A stretch of DNA of 56,628 bases, filler included, from Sphacelaria rigidula (Eukaryota): NCBI GenBank assembly GCA_964200075.2. It is 6 parts of 6 records of this genome, joined end to end, with 100 filler letters (N's around TTAATTAATTAA, not from the genome) between each part and the next. Parts side by side here need not be neighbours in the genome. Positions count along the whole stretch, not along the records: positions 37,823 to 47,175 come from CAXNAA020008691.1; 5 more parts are not named here. One strand, 5' to 3'. Both the position numbers and the translations under genes were made by a program. Positions 3,363 to 47,275 of the stretch are shown here, in pieces. Below the pieces are notes generated by a model. The model had not been told where the DNA came from and did no database searches. It saw nothing but the letters and a program-made list of their open reading frames with translations. How positions within the stretch are numbered: the first letter of the stretch is position 1; the number at the start of each line of letters is the position of its first letter.

Positions 3363-3923
3363 TCACGGGGGTCCTGGCCAGTTTCCTGTGTCATACAGGA
3401 ATATTTCCCGTCTGTCACGTGAGGCGCTTATGAAAACAGCGGCACTAACTTGTGTCAGGGAATCATCATCACGGAACAACAGCCAATTTTCCTCCCTACC
3501 ATCAAACTTCTCATCGAATCTTTCAACACGAAAACAACTCTTCAAGCCTACATGAGGGTAGTAATCCGGGGACTCCTCGTTCATACTTACTTGGGCGGAT
3601 CCATCGCCCGTGGATCCTCGGAGAGGGCCTGATACAATCCCTACACCGCGTGGTGACCGGACCCTCCCTGTTCCGGCACCGGCGATGGTGTGCCTCCCGT
3701 CACCTGCCTCCCCCTCCCCGCCCACTGCCGCTCCAAGGCCAGTGGACGATGTCCCGCGCACTAATTGGGACACCATCATCCTCAGCTCCGCCAGCTGCTC
3801 GGTAATTCCCGTCACCGATCCGTGCAAGCTGGCGACATTCTCTTTCACCTCCAGCATCTCCGTTGAAGACGATGTGTCTCCTACGACAGCCGAGTATCTT
3901 TCCGCAGTGCTCCAGTCCCCCAT
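3363..3923 (-). pseudogene. Truncated gag-like ORF of the LTR element
   Basis: ATG lies 47 nt inside the 5' LTR boundary. A coiled-coil-like stretch (VASLHGSVTGITEQLAELRMMVSQL) precedes KFDGREENWLLFR, resembling the Gag N-terminal FxGxxxxW motif. Downstream are only fragmentary Copia-like pol traces (VKDALHVHSML about 2300, CVVC about 2120, TSPRNG about 1775). Confidence 0.55.
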
Positions 3924-3969
3924 CGGTCCCTTGGCCACAAAGCTCCCAAGTTGGGTAGGGACTCTAGAG

Positions 3970-4329
3970 TGTTGGAGTATTTGTAGCTTCGTGACCCCGT
4001 GAGAGGATGGGATGCAGACTCGACTCAGATAGTTGATCAATGGACACGACTGCGATAGTCGATCAATGGACACGGCTGACTGCCGATCAAGATAAGGTAG
4101 AAATGTATATTAAGCTTTGTTGATGAAGAGGGAAGGAAGAGGAGTGGACGCAGTTGGGGTCAAGGTCCCAACATGCGACGAGCACCACTCACGTATGTCC
4201 AGTCACTAACATCCCAATATAAAGTCATCCCGCGTAGTACCCGGAACTCAAACAGGTATATCACTAGACTATTGTACCTTATCCTGACAAGGTGTATCTT
4301 ACGGACCACCCCGGGCCATCCTACGAACA
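3970..4329 (-). repeat. 5' LTR
   Basis: TG...CA termini; matches 662-995; carries an extra 26-bp unit (cgactcagatagttgatcaatggaca) at about 4021-4046. Confidence 0.95.
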
Positions 4330-9356: not shown

Positions 9357-9456
9357 NNNNNNNNNNNNNNNNNNNNNNNNNNNNNNNNNNNNNNNNNNNN
9401 TTAATTAATTAANNNNNNNNNNNNNNNNNNNNNNNNNNNNNNNNNNNNNNNNNNNN
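9357..9456. other. Artificial contig linker
   Basis: 44 N + TTAATTAATTAA (stops in all six frames) + 44 N. Confidence 0.99.
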
Positions 9457-18812: not shown

Positions 18813-18912
18813 NNNNNNNNNNNNNNNNNNNNNNNNNNNNNNNNNNNNNNNNNNNNTTAATTAATTAANNNNNNNNNNNNNNNNNNNNNNNNNNNNNNNN
18901 NNNNNNNNNNNN
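18813..18912. other. Artificial contig linker
   Basis: 44 N + TTAATTAATTAA + 44 N. Confidence 0.99.
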
Positions 18913-28267: not shown

Positions 28268-28367
28268 NNNNNNNNNNNNNNNNNNNNNNNNNNNNNNNNN
28301 NNNNNNNNNNNTTAATTAATTAANNNNNNNNNNNNNNNNNNNNNNNNNNNNNNNNNNNNNNNNNNNN
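28268..28367. other. Artificial contig linker
   Basis: 44 N + TTAATTAATTAA + 44 N. Confidence 0.99.
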
Positions 28368-37722: not shown

Positions 37723-37822
37723 NNNNNNNNNNNNNNNNNNNNNNNNNNNNNNNNNNNNNNNNNNNNTTAATTAATTAANNNNNNNNNNNNNNNNNNNNNN
37801 NNNNNNNNNNNNNNNNNNNNNN
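37723..37822. other. Artificial contig linker
   Basis: 44 N + TTAATTAATTAA + 44 N. Confidence 0.99.
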
Positions 37823-38199
37823 AAGCACTGTTTTGGGCTTGAGCCTCATCTCGAAGTTAAACCTCAATTCTCACAATTTGTTGTTAGCAGGTGTCGTAGA
37901 GCCACGCAAAATAACCGAAGGAAACATTCGATCACTCGATGTACCCCAAGCGTTCACGCGCATCATGGTTGCAAGGACAGGGTGCACGGGGTCGGCAACA
38001 AAACGGCAATGGTACAAATTGCCAACCCGTCGACTTGACATGTAAAGCTAAAACGCAACACGGTTTTTGAGCTATATCACCTCAACACAAGAGACGAAAA
38101 AGCGGAAAAACTTCATGATATAGTAGTCAGCATCAGAAGTTTTCAGAATTCGCAGTTGTTCTATTTTTTGAGGTTTTCTGGAGTACTGTTCTTCACTAC

Positions 38200-38760
38200 T
38201 ACTTGAAAGTGCTAGCGCCGGCAGATTTAGGGAGAAAGTGTAGGCTGCGCTCAAACTGCAGTGCTCAAGTTGGTGTTTTTGGGGCGATACGGACTTGACA
38301 CCCCGTTTATCAGGAGGGTGTTATTGACCGTTTTTGCTTCAATGTAAGCAGTTTGCCCGCTCTTCAGCGACGAAACGGTAAATATTCAGATAAATTTATA
38401 CGTATTAAATTCTTCACAATAACGATCGAGATCGTGTTTCCCTCCTATGCTGCACAGACCTCTGTCTAGCATTTTATGCGGATGGCTTATTTTCGGGGGG
38501 GTTCACATTAAATTTTCCATGAGCACTCGAAAGTGCTAGCGTCGAACGTTTTTGCAAATAAGTAAACCGTGCTCAAATCACAATCGCCCAAGTTGGTGTC
38601 GTGGGGGCGATACCGGGTAAAGACCTCGTTTATCAGGAGGGTGTTACTGACCGTAATTGGTTCAACAAACATAGTTTTCCTGCTTTAGCGCAGTGGCTAG
38701 GTCGAATTTAAAAAAAAAAACTCTTTGAGTCTTCATTTATATGATCCGGATCGAGTCGGT
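38200..38760 (+). repeat. Diverged direct repeat, 2 copies, period ~325 bp
   Basis: gaaagtgctagcg...caagttggtgt...ggggcgatac...gtttatcaggagggtgtta occurs twice. Confidence 0.75.
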
Positions 38761-38949
38761 CTACCGAAAATACCGAAAAACTAGAGCCTGGGGTCGTATT
38801 TTCGCAGGGCCTCCGAAGATCGGTCAAGCCCGTAAGTCATTCATTATTAATCGCAAATAATTTTCCTTTCAATATTTTTCAAGAGATATAAAATATCTCC
38901 GGATGCCCATTTGTTGGCATCCAACAGTCACTGTGATGAGTGGTGGCAA

Positions 38950-40045
38950 GCAAAACAAACTTTGGACAATCTTTGAGAAACTAAGAAATTACGGGTTCTG
39001 CATACTTCTGACATTGACCGCTGTAATGATAAGGGACAAGAACAGAGAAACTTCATGTTATTCCGGACACGCGCACGCTATGTCAGGGCTGTCAACGCCA
39101 AACAAAATGGTCCGCAACCGGCCAAAATTTGCCGATGGGATACGTTCCGGTGGGACGGTCATACGAGGAAGTGCCGGCAAACCCAGTCAAATGAAGAACA
39201 ACTTCGATGTCAGAAGCTGGAGTACAAAATATGTCTTGTCCGTATTGGACCACCTCACAAGGTATGCTTTGCTCATTCCGGTGCCGAAAAAACAGACCAC
39301 ATCAATATAGCCAAAACTATAATTGACAGAGTCTTTACCGCATTCGGCATCCCGGGAAAGCTACGTTCGAATGAAAGCGCGGAATTTGAGAACAAACTAG
39401 CACACGCACTGCAACAGGAGTTAGGTTTAATTGAAACTCGCACGACACCGCTACGCCCGCAAGGTAGTTCACTGTCGGAACGAGTCCACTCCACCATGCA
39501 TGTGATGTTAGCTATGCATACGTCAGTCGGGAACAAAAACTGGGTACCCATGCTTCCATTCGTCCAATGGCGTACAACACTTCTTATCACAATGCAGTAC
39601 AAGAGACCGTATTTTTCGTTGTTCGGAACACAGCCCAGATTACCAAGTGACATCACGCTCGGCAGACCTGAAGAGAGCCAAGCAGCAACACTCGAAGAAC
39701 TTTCCGAAGAAACACAGGAAACCTATAGTTTGGATCTGAAATTGCGAGACAAGCCCCACGAGAAAGAGCGAACGAGCAGAAAACAAGGACAAATTCAAAT
39801 CTTTCCCAGTGTTCAAACCCGGTCAAGAAATACTCCTGTACCCACCATACCAGCAGGATTCAGAAAGGCTAAACCCCAAACTCCAATTACCATGGAGAGA
39901 ACCTTTCATGATACCCGAGAGGCGATCGCCGGTTGGGTACATAATCAAAATAAGCGACGACTCTAGAGAAACGTCAGTACATCTCGCTAATTTGAAGAAA
40001 TATCAACCGCAAGAAACAGCGCCAACTCCGGACTTTGACAATAGG
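38950..40045 (+). mobile_element. Ty3/Gypsy integrase pseudogene
   Basis: KYVLSVLDHLTRYALLIPVP; FGIPGKLRSNESAEFEN; RTTPLRPQGSSLSERVHSTM; NPKLQLPWREPF (GPY/F-like); frameshifted. Confidence 0.9.
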
Positions 40046-40430
40046 GTAGCTGAATGCTCGCATCCGGACTCGGAATCTAAAACTACAGGGAAGCGGAAAC
40101 GGATGTGACTGTTCAACAGACTGGTCGAGCGTCCTCGCACAACGCTCAAGCGTTGAGCAGTAATCTGGGGTCAAATTTCGGAGATCAATGAGACTGAAAA
40201 GCGACAGCCCAGCAGCTGACCTAACCTATCGAGCTGAAGAAACATCACAAGATAGACACCTCCTCGAAATATACCGTCATGACATCGGGTTAGCAGAGCG
40301 CTCACATCCGGAGTCGAAATCCGAAAATACTGGGTAACGGAAACGGATGTGACTGTTCAACAGACTGTTCGAGTACCCTAGCAAAACGCTCAAGGGTTGA
40401 GCAGTAGCCCGGGGTCACCGTTCGGGGGTC
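39990..40430 (+). repeat. Tandem duplication, period ~245 bp
   Basis: cggaaacggatgtgactgttcaacagactg...aacgctcaag..ttgagcagta at about 40094 and 40338. Confidence 0.8.
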
Positions 40431-40559
40431 AAGGAGAGTCACGAGAGAAGAAAACAAAAACGACGTGAGAAGAATGCAGACATGAACGGAAAAATATTCG
40501 ACATGTCAACGGCGACTGGGGTGCAACTTCCCAAGGAATATGACCTCTCAGCAATCGGG

Positions 40560-41420
40560 GTAGTGCTGACCACTTTGACGATGTTTAGACAAGAACGCAC
40601 AATGCTCACAGGCCGAAAACATCGTAGTCACAGTTTTGTTACTACCACGAAGACGTTGTACTTTTTCGGTGTCAGCGGAACCGAAGGTATCCCAGAACCC
40701 GGACATGAAAAACCCAGGCGCCCGTGGACCGACCAGTGTCCCAGTGTCCAAACATGTAGAAACAGCAGATGCATCCAGCACCAAAGTGCAACGCATCTTG
40801 TGGAAATAGATCACATTGGACACACATACATGCCACAAAATGATACGAAGCAAAGAACATGTCGATGTTTCACCATAGAGAACAATGCTCGCAAGATAAA
40901 CATCAGACCCACCGCTTTGGTACTAACGCGAGGACTGTGTCCTATACTCCGGTGTCCGCGGAACCAAAGGCATCCCAGAACCCGGGCAGGAATACCTCAA
41001 GCGCCCGTGGACCGGTCGGTGTCCCAGTGCCTAGTCAGGTATACCTAGCTGATGCGGCCTGCACCAAAGTGCAAAAGTATCCCATAAAAAACGTGTAACA
41101 CATGATGCAGTTATTTGACACAATACAAGAAGCAAGGATCATTTTGACGGTGTTCAGCCAAAGGAGCACAATGCTCCCAGGTGAAAAAACAAAATACATA
41201 TATGTATCTTCAACACCGCCTTGTTACTAACTAACCCGAGACTTAACCCTACTTAGGTGTCCGCGGAACCAAAGGCATCCCAGAACCCGGGCAGGAATAA
41301 TCTAGGCGTGGACTGATTAGTGTCCCATCGTCCAATCATGCACACCAGCAGATACAACTAGCCCCTAAGTGCAAATACATCTGATGGGATCATACCACAT
41401 ATGACAGCTATATGACAAAA
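40560..41420 (+). repeat. Three diverged tandem units of ~290 bp
   Basis: ggtgtc.gcggaacc.aagg.atcccagaacccgg at about 40668, 40951 and 41256. Confidence 0.85.
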
Positions 41421-42202
41421 AAAGCTTTCGAGGGGGTTTGGAATGATTGCATTGCTACTGACCAAGGGTAGCTAAAATTTACTGGGGATGTTTACTCAAT
41501 ACCACAGTATAGAGAAGGGCTACCTTTGCGATTAGTGGTGGCATTACTCAATCAATGATTGTCACTCAAAGAATCCTCCTTGAATATATCATCAGCTTCG
41601 CTGATGATCGTCTCGTCCCACCAGCCATAGCCTCGACGGGCTTGAGGCGCATAAAGGCGGGGGAAATGTGGAGGATACCACTTTGCAGTGATATATCAGA
41701 GACTGATGCCACACATGTATAAAGACCTGGCGCAAGCACGGACAAGATAGGAACGGTCCGGAAGGACCAGATTACCGAGGACCCTGTAGTACCGACGTAA
41801 CTAGACAACTCGAGGTGATGCCAGGAAGAGCCTAATATTAGGATGGTCCAACATCCTTCGAGGTTCTGGTCGCCTCTGGCGATCACTTCTAGTCTGACCC
41901 CCCTTCTTGCCTACATATTCAAGAGGAAATCATCGCCAGCCTCGGAGTTCCTTCAGCATCAGGACGGCAGTCTCCCCCCGTAGGTCTCTGACTACTCTAG
42001 CGGTACGCCTTCCTCAAATATGCAGGCATCTTGCATCTGTTTTATTTCTTTCAACCAATCACATTTATCCACAGAAAATAAACTCAAGCTACTCAAATTC
42101 CAGTGACCACATTGGGGTCTCTATAATAGATCGTGGGCCGATTTGGGCGAGAGATTAACCGGATGCCATAAAATCTATCGAGCAGAGCGTCGTGGATCCT
42201 CC

Positions 42203-42892
42203 TCAACAGAAAAAATCGAATCCCCAGGGGCGCTTTATGTACCAGCCTTTGGCTGGAAAATTGAATATCCTGACACCAATGAAGAAAAGCAAGTCATTCT
42301 GCAGATACAGTTGCGGTAAGCTCCTTGAAAAATCAAGAATTCTGGGGTATTCTCGAACGTCGGCGAACTCGTACATCCTCAGCATGTCCGCCATGCGCGC
42401 ACGCTCCTCGGATGATTGTCCGGGGATGATGATGTCCAGTACGATGGGAGCTCGATTTCCCCAGTCGATGTACGTAGTCGAACGTCCTTGTAGTCGAAGC
42501 GGCTGATTAGTCAGGCTTGCACGCGCATTGGCTGTTACGCCGCGCTGTGTTCTCTGGCGGTGCGAAGTGCGGTATGCACTGCCATTGGTTGTTGGGTTTC
42601 GCCCGACGTGTCCGCGCGCATTTCTGTTTCCTTGCCTCGAGTTCCCGATGTTGATGCGGTGGTTCATGATGGAGATGTTGATGTAGAAGATGTTGGAGGT
42701 AGGAGGTGTTGGAGGCATGGATTGAGAAGATGTTGGGGGTTGAAGGTGTTGGAGGTATGGGTTGAGAGTGATGCGTTGTGGCCCTTGGGATGTTTGTCGA
42801 GATGTCTCTTGGGTGATCGACACTCGAAATATTGGAAGGTCGAAGTCAAGCGTTGAAAATGCCCCTGACGATGAATATCCTGCCCGATTCAT
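42203..42892 (-). CDS. Extra ORF immediately downstream of Copia pol; unknown function, probably frameshifted with continuation to ~41560
   Basis: 229-aa ORF whose ATG lies 5 nt after the pol stop, on the same strand; low-complexity N/R/Q-rich N-half and a globular-looking C-half. Confidence 0.5.
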   Translation of the reverse strand: MNRAGYSSSGAFSTLDFDLPIFRVSITQETSRQTSQGPQRITLNPYLQHLQPPTSSQSMPPTPPTSNIFYINISIMNHRINIGNSRQGNRNARGHVGRNPTTNGSAYRTSHRQRTQRGVTANARASLTNQPLRLQGRSTTYIDWGNRAPIVLDIIIPGQSSEERARMADMLRMYEFADVREYPRILDFSRSLPQLYLQNDLLFFIGVRIFNFPAKGWYIKRPWGFDFFC

Positions 42893-42897
42893 ACCCG

Positions 42898-45800
42898 TTA
42901 CCCCCCAAATTCGGTTATAGCCTTCAGCAGTCTCTGATGTACAATTCTATCTCAACTCTTGGTGGAAGATCGGCTAACTGTTCTGAGGATCGTACATGGT
43001 TTATCCTTAGTTGTCCGGCTCGAACCATATATTTTAAGTTAATGGACTGTAGCTAGGCGTTTCGAGCTGGTGCTGAAGTTGGCGTTCGAAGACAGATGAA
43101 GTGCGCCTTGTGGATCCGAGTAAATAGTCGCGGGCTTAATAGATGACCACCCAAGCTCTCGTATAAGATCGAAGAGATACGCTCCGAATTTGCCGCATTT
43201 CGAAAGGGCAATTAACTCCGCTTCTGCCGTAAAAGAAGCTGTAATACGTTGTGGACTCGAAGTGAAATGAACTAGCCCGTTACACAGGAAAAACAACGTC
43301 CCCGTCGTGGATCGCATTTCCCCCTGAAGTCCGGCATTACCATAGCAAAAGTCATAATATTCCTTTCAATCCAGATTCTTATTGGAGGTTAGGTACGTTA
43401 GTGGAAGATTAGGCTTTCTTTTCAGGGACCGAAATATCCGTTCAACCGCTACTAAGTGCTGACTGCTCGGGCTGCTCATATGACGTGCTACCTGGGGGAC
43501 ACTAAATGCGATGTCGAATATTGTTTTATGAGCCAGGAAGATGAGGCTCCCAACCATCGCTTGATAATTAGTTTTCTCTGACGATTCCAGGAAGGTATCT
43601 TCAGACGCATCGTCGACGGGTTGATGTGGTGTTCCCGGTGTATGAACTGGATCGGATGACTCCATTCCGAATTTCTTGAGCATTGGTTTTACGCACCTAT
43701 GCTGGGACAACATGAGAGATCCTCGCGCTTCATCTCTGATGACCTCTATACCGAGAATAAGAGAAACTGGCCCTAGCTCGGAGATGAAGAATCTTGACTT
43801 CAGTGCGTCCTGAACCTGTTGCAGTATGCTGATGGACGGTCCTGTCATCAAGACATCAGCTACATACAGAGTAAGCATCACATATCCCTCATGGGATCCT
43901 TTCGTGTAGACATATGGGTCACTTGGCGTGGTTAAAAAACTCATTTTCCGTAGCTCCGTACCCATTGTAACGTTCCACACATTTGGACTCTGGCGAAGTC
44001 CGTAGAGAGCGCGCTTAAGGCGCATCACTTGTGATTCTCCTGTCGTTAGGTCGAACGTTTCGAAGCCAGGCGGTTGTCTACAGGATAATGTTTCCAGTAG
44101 CTTTCCATTTAAGAAAGCAGTTTGTACGTCGATGGCTAAGATGGGCCAATTTTTCGCAGAAGCAATTGCCAGTAATAATCTGACTTTCCAACCTGCAAAC
44201 TGGAGCGAAAGTCCCCCCGCAGTCGCGTCCATGCCTCTGAGACCAGCCCTGAACCACCAACCGGGCTTTAAAACGCCCATTGGCCTTGACCTTCGAGACC
44301 CACCTTGTACCGATGATGTTGTCGTTGCTGGGAACAGAGCTGGCTAAGATGATGTCGGCTACTTCATGATTTTTAGTGCTTCGAAGTTCGTCCAGCATGG
44401 CTGCTTTCCATTTCTTCGCGTATGGTGAGCTCAACGCCTGTTGATCATTGGTAGGGATTGAAATTGCTGCGGGTGGTGCAACCTGTTCAACTCCGACTGT
44501 GCCTATGTACTGACATACCGTTTCCAGTGTTGCCGCAGCATGTTGATCTCCAGAAGACATGAAGGCTAGTCGCTGCAGCTCACTGGTTTGTCGTTTGTTA
44601 ACGGGTTCAGAAGGATGATGATTGGGACCGCCGGCTGAACGCAATCTCCTTTGGGCGATTGGCGGCCTTGTAGTCGGTGAATTGTCCTCCGTTGTGCTGT
44701 CCTCTAGCTGAGCTATACCATCGTAGATATTTATGTTAAAGTTGTTTGTGTCGTCATACTGTTCCTGATCAACTACAGATTCGTTGGGTTCCTGGATGTC
44801 CAATGTCGAAAAATCTTCATCACCGTAAGGAGCTCCTTTTACTTGTTCGATGGAAGTAACGTTTCTGGAGCTGGATACTTTTCCCGAGTAGCGGTTGTAA
44901 ATACGGTATGACGAGCTACCGGAATCATACCCTACTAGCACTCCTTCCCAAGCCTTTTCTTCAAACTTACTGTGATGACGCTCCCTGTGCGTAAACGCCC
45001 TCGAGCCACTTGTCCCTTAGAATGATGCCTTCGGTTGCTTGAGAAACATCCGAAAATATGGAGCATCACAGTCGATGCTCTTGATTAAAAAGACCGCAGT
45101 TGCAGCAATTTCTCCCCAAAAAACTTTCAGCAAATTCGATTCGTTCAGAAAGCAACGTGTGACGTTCAAGATGCTCCGCCCATCTCTTTCACTGATGCCA
45201 TTCTGCTGGAGATTGTATGGGTTGATAAATTCTTGACGAATACCCGTAGTTTTGCAGTACCTCTTAAAATAGTCCGCGATATATTCACCCCCACGGTCTG
45301 ACCGCAGGCGGTGTACACGGAGTCCTAAAGGAATGGCCAAATCTTGGATGAACCTGCAGAGCGTAGTTAGGGTGTCATCCTTCGTTTTGATGAAGTAGAC
45401 TACCTTGAAACGCGTGAAGTGATCCGTGAATTTTGTCATGTAACGATAGCCTCCCCGTGCCATGGGCGTGATCGGTCCTGTTAGCCCAGTGTTGACCAGT
45501 TGTAGTCGTTCCGAAATATTCGTAGAGTCAAGAGTCTTGGGGTGGTCCTGCTGTACACTCTCATTAATTTTGCACGTTACTCAAGGTGACAATAACCCCC
45601 CAAAGTTCACACCTGATTCAGGGTTATTTAGTAGACGGCGCATGACCTGCTCCGTGGGGCGTCCAAGTCGCCTACGCCAAATGTCTGCTCCTGTCGTAGT
45701 AGACAAAGCTGTCGTGTCTGCTCCCGCCGTGGCAGACATGGCTGCTGGAGCTCCCGGTATGTCGTGGTGAATGGCTTCTGCAACAACGGCTGTCCTGATG

Positions 45801-47097
45801 CCCATAGATTCTCCTGACATAATTATGGCTGTAAATGCTGAGCTGTTATTGATACTACCCGGTTTCCGAGAAACCTTCACGCTGATGTACTGTAAGGCTC
45901 CGTTGCTGTCACTATTGATAGGCACTTGAAACTTTTCAAGGACGATATGGGATTTGTGAGGAAATATAGTCGAAGCTCCCTTCGCAAGAGCTTGCACAGG
46001 GGAGAACAGATGTTTCCCCAAACCTGGGACAATCACGACTGGGAGCTGAACAGAACGTTGGTACGCCTCAGAGTCAATGGCGACGGTGTTGAGAACTCCT
46101 TTTGCTGTACCATGCAGTAGATGGCGTCCCGCTGTTACAACAGTCATCGGGGAATGAAGTTTGACACACTCGTTCATTTCACGTTCGATATTGACAACAA
46201 CTGATCATCCAGAAAGTGTCCAGTGCTGCCGCTGTCCACTGTTAACTGAATAAAAATTTGATCAGATGTATCAGTGACATGTAAACCAGAAAGAATAGAA
46301 AATCCCATACCGTTTGGTGCTGAAGATGAATCGATCACTGTCGAAGCTATTGATGAAGAGGTTCGTAGGCCATTGTTATTCGATGGTGCGGTTGTAGAAG
46401 CTGAATCGGCGACGGCTGTATTGGCTTGGCGTCGATGTCCGTCGAAGTTGTTGCTGCCGACGTTGCTGTTGTGGTTGCGCCTACTGTTGTTGTTGCTGCT
46501 GTTGTCGCGGTTGTTGTTTCGATGGCGGCGATTTCTACGACAATGATGGCCATTGTTGTTTCCAGCGTTGTTGATCGCATTCCCGCTGTTCTGATGAGCT
46601 CTACACTCAGAATCGTCATGCTTGTCAGTATGATGGAAACTGCACCATTTTACAAGCCTGTTTCCATGGTTTGACTGCATTTTAGAACGAGTCCCTCATA
46701 TGATATCCTGGCCTCCCGCAGATGTAGCAATTTCCACGGAATTTCTGGGGTTGATTCAAAGGTTTCGGTAGTGATGCCACCAGCAGTGATGGGTCGCGGC
46801 CATGCGATTTGCCGGAGGTAATTCTCCGCGCCATGCGATTAGCATACATATTTCGCATTGTTGTTTCGATGCTCTCAATGCTGATATCTAGGTCACGCTC
46901 CGTATTGTACTTGATGAGATCATACTCGCTTTGTTGAACCTTCGATCACTACGTCAGTCAGCCTTTTTTCGGAAATGACCTCGCCAACGTTTTCCAGTTC
47001 GTCCCGAAGCTAATGCACTTTGCTAAAAAATACATCAGGATCTTGCCCTGGTGACATAGTGACGTTGATGAGTTTTCTCATCAAGATCCTGACTCTC
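42898..47097 (-). mobile_element. Ty1/Copia gag-pol (pseudogenised, 5' end missing)
   Basis: Gag MSPGQDPDVFF..EYDLIKYN; knuckle CYICGRPG; protease LTVDSGSTGHF; IWRRRLGRP; integrase KFTDHFTRF, LRSDRGGEY, QQNGISER; RT IDVQTAFLNG, LKRALYGLRQSP, LYVAD; RNase H ASFTAEAELIAL, IYSD; ends KAITEFGG*. Confidence 0.97.
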
Positions 47098-47175
47098 TCT
47101 CTTTTTCTTCTTTTTTTTCCCTCACACTTTGAACCCCTCCCCTTCCTCGGGATGAGTCCGTGGTCTCAAGGAATC

Positions 47176-47275
47176 NNNNNNNNNNNNNNNNNNNNNNNNN
47201 NNNNNNNNNNNNNNNNNNNTTAATTAATTAANNNNNNNNNNNNNNNNNNNNNNNNNNNNNNNNNNNNNNNNNNNN
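47176..47275. other. Artificial contig linker
   Basis: 44 N + TTAATTAATTAA + 44 N. Confidence 0.99.

Follow-up and report, generated by a model that had tools for sequence, protein, structure and literature searches.

The third ORFs that some LTR retrotransposons carry are still poorly understood, and the known Copia cases are mainly the env-like genes of plant Sireviruses; the locus described here asks what an extra open reading frame (ORF), lying between pol and the 3′ LTR of a Ty1/Copia element in an alga, is and does. It occupies contig C8691 (positions 37823–47175) of the window, the whole 56,628-nucleotide stretch analysed from the 244-Mb assembly of Sphacelaria rigidula. A prior sequence-only reading had proposed that this interval holds the accessory gene of an algal Copia lineage, and that central proposal holds: with a high degree of confidence, the extra ORF is a real accessory gene in the env slot of one Ty1/Copia lineage. 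Directly shown are its position, its own conserved ATG, purifying selection, divergence in step with RNase H, restriction to a single lineage and loss from a deletion subfamily.

The Copia element and its nested Gypsy insertion

The minus strand of the contig holds a decayed Ty1/Copia element with rve, SH3 and RVT_2 domains in Copia order (Pfam). A broken gag remnant (46174–46945), recognised from its ORFs and from the position of gag in full-length relatives, is followed by the protease, integrase core and SH3 region (44344–46204), interrupted by stops and frameshifts (rve, E = 1.6e-11; SH3_retrovirus, E = 2e-14; gag_pre-integrase weak), and then by reverse transcriptase (RT) and RNase H (42898–44343; RVT_2, E = 9e-41; INT-RT-RH order). 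This gag-PR-INT-RT-RH order with an RVT_2-type RT identifies the element as a Ty1/Copia LTR retrotransposon. Its pol ends with a TAA stop at 42900–42898 after KAITEFGG, and the G-run at 42901–42906, earlier suggested as a polypurine tract, is actually the final two glycine codons of pol. The window copy has neither LTR, the 5′ one lying beyond the contig end at 47175 and the other having been lost to a Gypsy insertion; paired LTRs surround the coding region in relatives L067, L068, L077 and L079 and are partial in L065 and L078, target-site duplications being unconfirmed. A separate head-to-tail Copia pair was recorded in L063 (C3371, 696–3336 and 7359–10000), 99.6% identical across 2642 nt and without the RT core in both copies, which reflects either tandem duplication in the very recent past or an effect of the assembly.

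A DNA search with 41500–42900 broke sharply near 42020, the upper part yielding two close relatives and the lower part 585 candidates, 40 of which were scored. The sharp common ends of the fetched copies define the 352-bp, TG-starting 3′ LTR of a Ty3/Gypsy element at 41667–42018 on the plus strand, which is no part of the Copia gene; loose contig ends accumulate at 41667 and 42016, at its edges. A polypurine tract (41651–41666, plus strand) precedes it, the purine run standing ahead of 3′ LTR copies and not of 5′ copies, which are followed by a TGGCG-type primer site. In relative L091 the LTR pair is identical at 338/350 positions (96.6%) with GAAG on either flank. Upstream (38861–41650, plus strand), ORFs and relatives disclose integrase remnants (38861–40108) and a repeat-rich 3′ internal region; relative L087 carries Integrase_H2C2 and rve domains, while the SH3_Tf2-1 match in the window is weak (E = 0.065). 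Two sets of diverged tandem units (~244 and ~283 nt) were seen at 40036–41380 on the plus strand, together with a 215-codon frame (40401–41048) that none of the 17 copies compared keeps intact.

This insertion accounts for much of an ancestral ORF of some 400 amino acids that had been envisaged, and which does not exist: the Copia gene had been fused with the nested Gypsy LTR. The text 'TIISEADDI' arises from a perfect 9-bp inverted repeat (41590–41612) just before the purine tract, present also in L094; 'FEEG' comes from the end of the Gypsy LTR read in reverse; and GYGWWDETIISEADD, the GYGWW frame, is the 3′ internal region of the Gypsy element read in antisense. That antisense frame is free of stops in 23/27 Gypsy copies, and its variability by codon position (0.157/0.162/0.086) is lowest at the third, the opposite of a coding pattern; since, in addition, the longer antisense frame across the LTR contains stops in 26/27 copies, there is no 400-residue ORF. 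Similarly, DWLKEIKQMQDACI is Copia 3′ non-coding sequence common to relatives after their stop, the window remnant of which (42019–42092, minus strand), aligned by eye with the post-stop sequence of L033, L036 and L042, is truncated by the Gypsy element.

Position and start of the extra ORF

The extra ORF itself, of ~190 codons, lies at 42093–42667 on the minus strand, as established by protein search, relatives, and codon-level and model evidence. It comprises an Asn/Arg-rich arm (~55 residues) followed by a predicted helical domain, and in the window copy carries a frameshift near 42210 and ends at a TGA stop (42095–42093). The previously noted ATG just after KAITEFGG does open 229 codons (42892 to 42206), of which the 3′ two thirds belong to a conserved coding family and the first 75 codons are spacer; in the first peptide then read from this segment, the coding frame runs from FFLLRRIH onward, the stretch before it coming from this gene too, but read out of frame. 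The spacer (42668–42897, minus strand) is C/A-rich and G-poor, and includes the non-conserved ATG at 42892.

Start and spacer were compared in 19 distinct copies out of 73 loci, those in which the pol tail and ORF motif were both found. The ATG at 42892 (+5), earlier taken as the start, occurs in the window copy only (1/19); the common start is at 42667, where, as read by eye, an ATG stands in 15/19 copies and the remaining four have one-base variants. Among copies keeping this ATG, the spacer measures 169–426 nt, and the ORF occupies frame 0, 1 or 2 relative to pol in seven, eight and four copies respectively, a spread widened by indels in decayed copies. With a varying frame and its own ATG 169–426 nt downstream, in-frame read-through of the pol stop is not supported; because read-through does not fit this spacer, translation would probably proceed from a subgenomic RNA, generated by an internal promoter or by splicing. 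In the post-pol spacer of L052, L055, L057, L074, L076, L080 and L114, which represent the more distant subfamilies, inspection by eye showed a conserved short inverted repeat that has ACGT cores and might form an RNA hairpin or contribute to an internal promoter.

Searched at the protein level with the extra ORF, the genome yielded 91 matches, spread over 74 contigs (all 99 candidates were scored). Same-strand RNase H lies within 1.6 kb upstream on 53 of these contigs; on 17 of the remaining 21 gag-pol lies beside the ORF, sometimes deleted or inverted, and on four of the 74 no gag-pol was present in the stretch fetched. Relative L067 combines an open 1597-codon gag-pol with a subsequent frameshifted extra ORF. 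LTR-like direct repeats (89–100% identical) flank the ORF in six of 20 longer stretches, two of them end-cut by the contig, and the ORF never falls within these repeats, which disposes of the concern that the segment might be the 3′ LTR itself. In position, sense orientation and conservation it agrees with the class of additional ORFs termed aORF-3S.

Selection, co-inheritance and distribution

Substitution rates were estimated for the 91 pairs formed by 14 copies without stops. Of these pairs, 68 were saturated at synonymous sites, with pN of 0.27–0.47, and the ten pairs with dS of 0.38–3.0, drawn between subfamilies, gave dN/dS values of 0.08–0.29, far below the value near 1 that had been named as fatal to a coding interpretation. 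The 13 closest pairs gave 0.38–1.48, approaching 1 in the youngest copies, as would be expected of decay following insertion. Shifted-frame controls had medians of 1.0–1.4; the antisense mirror frame gave 0.37 because third positions are common to both frames, and all three antisense frames contain stops in 15/15 copies. Choosing stop-free copies biases towards low dN/dS; the window/L002 pair, which came from the DNA search, nonetheless gave 0.29.

Extra-ORF and RNase H distances were correlated (Spearman 0.73, p = 0.0005; 15 of 24 candidate loci, both regions intact), and the two trees have their main groups in common, L100 excepted, with the extra ORF diverging ~2.2 times faster. As judged by comparison of the two regions, this correlation shows co-inheritance, not co-adaptation.

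Downstream of RNase H, none of 20 distant Copia loci (35–42% RNase H identity) carries the extra ORF. Among the 30 closest RNase H loci it is present in 12, the window included, partial in two and removed by internal deletion in 11, the other five being short or diverging earlier. Eight of the 11 deletions are one common event of ~690 nt that takes away the whole ORF (L124, L127, L131, L134, L136, L137, L142 and L149), and the other three are similar; ten of the 11 loci also have RT deletions and are non-autonomous, L131 being the exception. From its absence in distant Copia and these internal deletions in close loci, the ORF is lineage-specific and dispensable in cis. The earlier proviso that other copies might lack it was thus partly borne out, in that an ORF-less deletion subfamily exists and many copies carry the ORF. 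RT deletions found in most of the eight copies with the ~690-nt deletion occur in ORF-bearing copies too. Three further LTR-bounded copies, L077 (C3482), L078 (C20789) and L079 (C4975), have in common a deletion that takes out RNase H completely and RT for the most part; their residual pol is fused in frame to the core of the extra ORF (open frames of 335–450 codons), and they form a non-autonomous subfamily that has amplified and carries this Pol-ORF fusion.

Outside this genome, 22 matches were obtained among 1.84 billion protein representatives, one of them a repeat artefact; of the other 21, none of the 13 examined by cluster (nine plus four) bears a name. Of 20 compared, two match local copies at 92% and 81% identity and so are not independent, and the other 18 are 29–62% identical, from which it follows that the family reaches other genomes. 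P0020, P0029, P0031 and P0032, with their cluster members, are 130–197-residue homologs without the long basic arm, encoded on several contigs of 350–780 kb, two on contigs of 497,649 bases each, which suggests a repeated element in another genome.

No published description of the extra ORF was found among titles and abstract openings outside subscription journals and Repbase notes, and it had no Pfam match to any of Grande gene23, RIRE2, Retand, PvRetro13, Athila or Bagy2. It resembles the additional ORFs of those six elements in being lineage-wide, conserved, without a host homolog and placed between pol and the 3′ LTR, but the non-env cases among those plant ORFs run antisense and belong mostly to Gypsy elements (PMC7264820), whereas this one is sense and in Copia. 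Sireviruses of the SIRE1 type are closer in being Copia elements with a sense third ORF in the same interval, kept in some members and lost in others; their env-like genes have transmembrane and coiled-coil domains and possible expression by stop-codon suppression, and the genus is described from plants only (PMC3414828). The algal ORF differs in having no clear transmembrane helix, its own ATG and varying frames. Among the rows covered of the curated Ectocarpus family notes, Copia families are recorded with gag/pol or with gag alone, and none with a third ORF (PMC12477816), so algal repeat libraries may miss a gene; the available passages of bioRxiv 10.64898/2025.12.07.692804 contain neither 'ORF' nor 'accessory'. 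The slot is thus of a known kind, and the protein family that fills it is new: its members are short, well modelled and predicted to be soluble, and they occupy the env position of an algal element. The coexistence of copies with and without it in one genome makes its role directly testable.

Predicted product and candidate roles

The product has no Pfam match. Predictions make it soluble, helical and strongly basic (~190 residues, pI 9–11, 0–3 Cys), consisting of a disordered Arg/Asn-rich arm, acid-free as well as rich in arginine, and a compact helical domain, for which the structure model is globular. Hydropathy analysis of ten proteins revealed no clear transmembrane helix and no signal-like hydrophobic N-terminus, the Kyte-Doolittle 19-residue maximum being 0.55–1.35 in nine (below the usual membrane level) and 1.64 in one. 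In fold searches, DNA-binding domains were the sole recurring theme, weakly so, and no capsid or Rev-like match appeared among PDB or viral folds.

On balance, the evidence lends about even weight to a soluble basic nuclear factor that would bind the DNA of the element and aid expression or integration of the family in trans. Binding to the element's own nucleic acid, more probably DNA in the nucleus, is suggested because of the charge and the weak fold lead, and action in trans because ORF-less copies have spread. Comparable cases are the nuclear product of Grande gene23, which has its own promoter, within a survey in which sense additional ORFs are env-like with membrane domains and antisense ones sometimes nuclear (PMC7264820), and the anti-silencing VANC and other accessory proteins of Arabidopsis transposons (PMC13547354). 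VANC, encoded by MuDR/VANDAL elements and acting in trans, is a functional analogy only, for it belongs to eudicot DNA transposons and has a MAIN-related fold, whereas the extra ORF has no sequence or fold match to it. The ORF may also show how a retroelement copes with silencing in algae with chromatin marks unlike those of plants.

The alternative that fares best, and is still rather unlikely, is an RNA-handling factor whose Arg-rich arm might bind the genomic RNA and so serve its export, its packaging or the assembly of particles, by analogy with retroviral Rev or a basic capsid arm. The acid-free disordered arm and a pI of about 10–11 would suit it, as would the fusion to truncated pol in L077–L079, which could carry the product into particles if translated; against it stand the DNA-binding theme of the fold searches, however weak, and the want of a capsid or Rev-like match.

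A narrower proposal, which must be considered improbable, is that the product is a stand-alone DNA-binding module derived, as in Ndc10, from a tyrosine-recombinase core-binding domain and kept over long divergence as a trans-acting, sequence-specific anti-silencing or integration-targeting factor; if true, the env slot would house a novel class of accessory protein for retrotransposons. The core-binding domain, Ndc10 domain 1 and SroF are presumably one grouping of entries, and hhalign against one local recombinase family (24 sequences, which may not represent the fold) scored at shuffle level.

There is a slender chance that the ORF encodes a self-limiting factor damping its own family, such that ORF-deleted copies spread more easily, as one deletion in 8/30 closest loci and similar ones in three more might imply; yet ten of these 11 copies are also RT-deleted and non-autonomous, so that shortening alone accounts for their spread, and the ORF has long been kept in subfamilies between which dS is saturated, in keeping with an advantage for the element. 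It is very improbable that the product is Env-like or serves movement between cells, roles suggested for the third ORFs of Sirevirus and Athila: position and orientation agree with those of env-like ORFs (PMC7264820), but the lack of a signal-like N-terminus, low hydropathy in 9/10 proteins, few cysteines, basic pI, compact globular model and 190-residue length do not, and the former label of 'env-like' is not supported, nor is that of 'captured', no copy resembling a host gene having been seen. Least probable of all is that the segment has no protein role, being a piece of a host gene carried along passively or a conserved stretch of non-coding DNA, a reading to which the four contigs without gag-pol and the near-neutral decay of young copies might be ascribed, but which codon-level data appear to have largely refuted already, given third-position-biased divergence, a frame kept open at 30–40% identity, closed antisense frames, a conserved ATG and a foldable model.

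Some minor features were also recorded. N spacers with a TTAA-repeat core occur in the window at 9357–9456, 18813–18912, 28268–28367, 37723–37822 and 47176–47275; the contigs on either side are unrelated, and adjacency in the window is not genomic adjacency. Loci L172–L197 (e.g., C21072:1542–2804) represent a tyrosine-recombinase family with 101 matches within this genome, probably Ngaro/DIRS retroelements. A 287-nt direct repeat, 98% identical, at 709–995 and 4043–4329 with 3.3 kb between, encloses a gag-like frame (3363–4109, minus strand), possibly marking a small non-autonomous LTR element.
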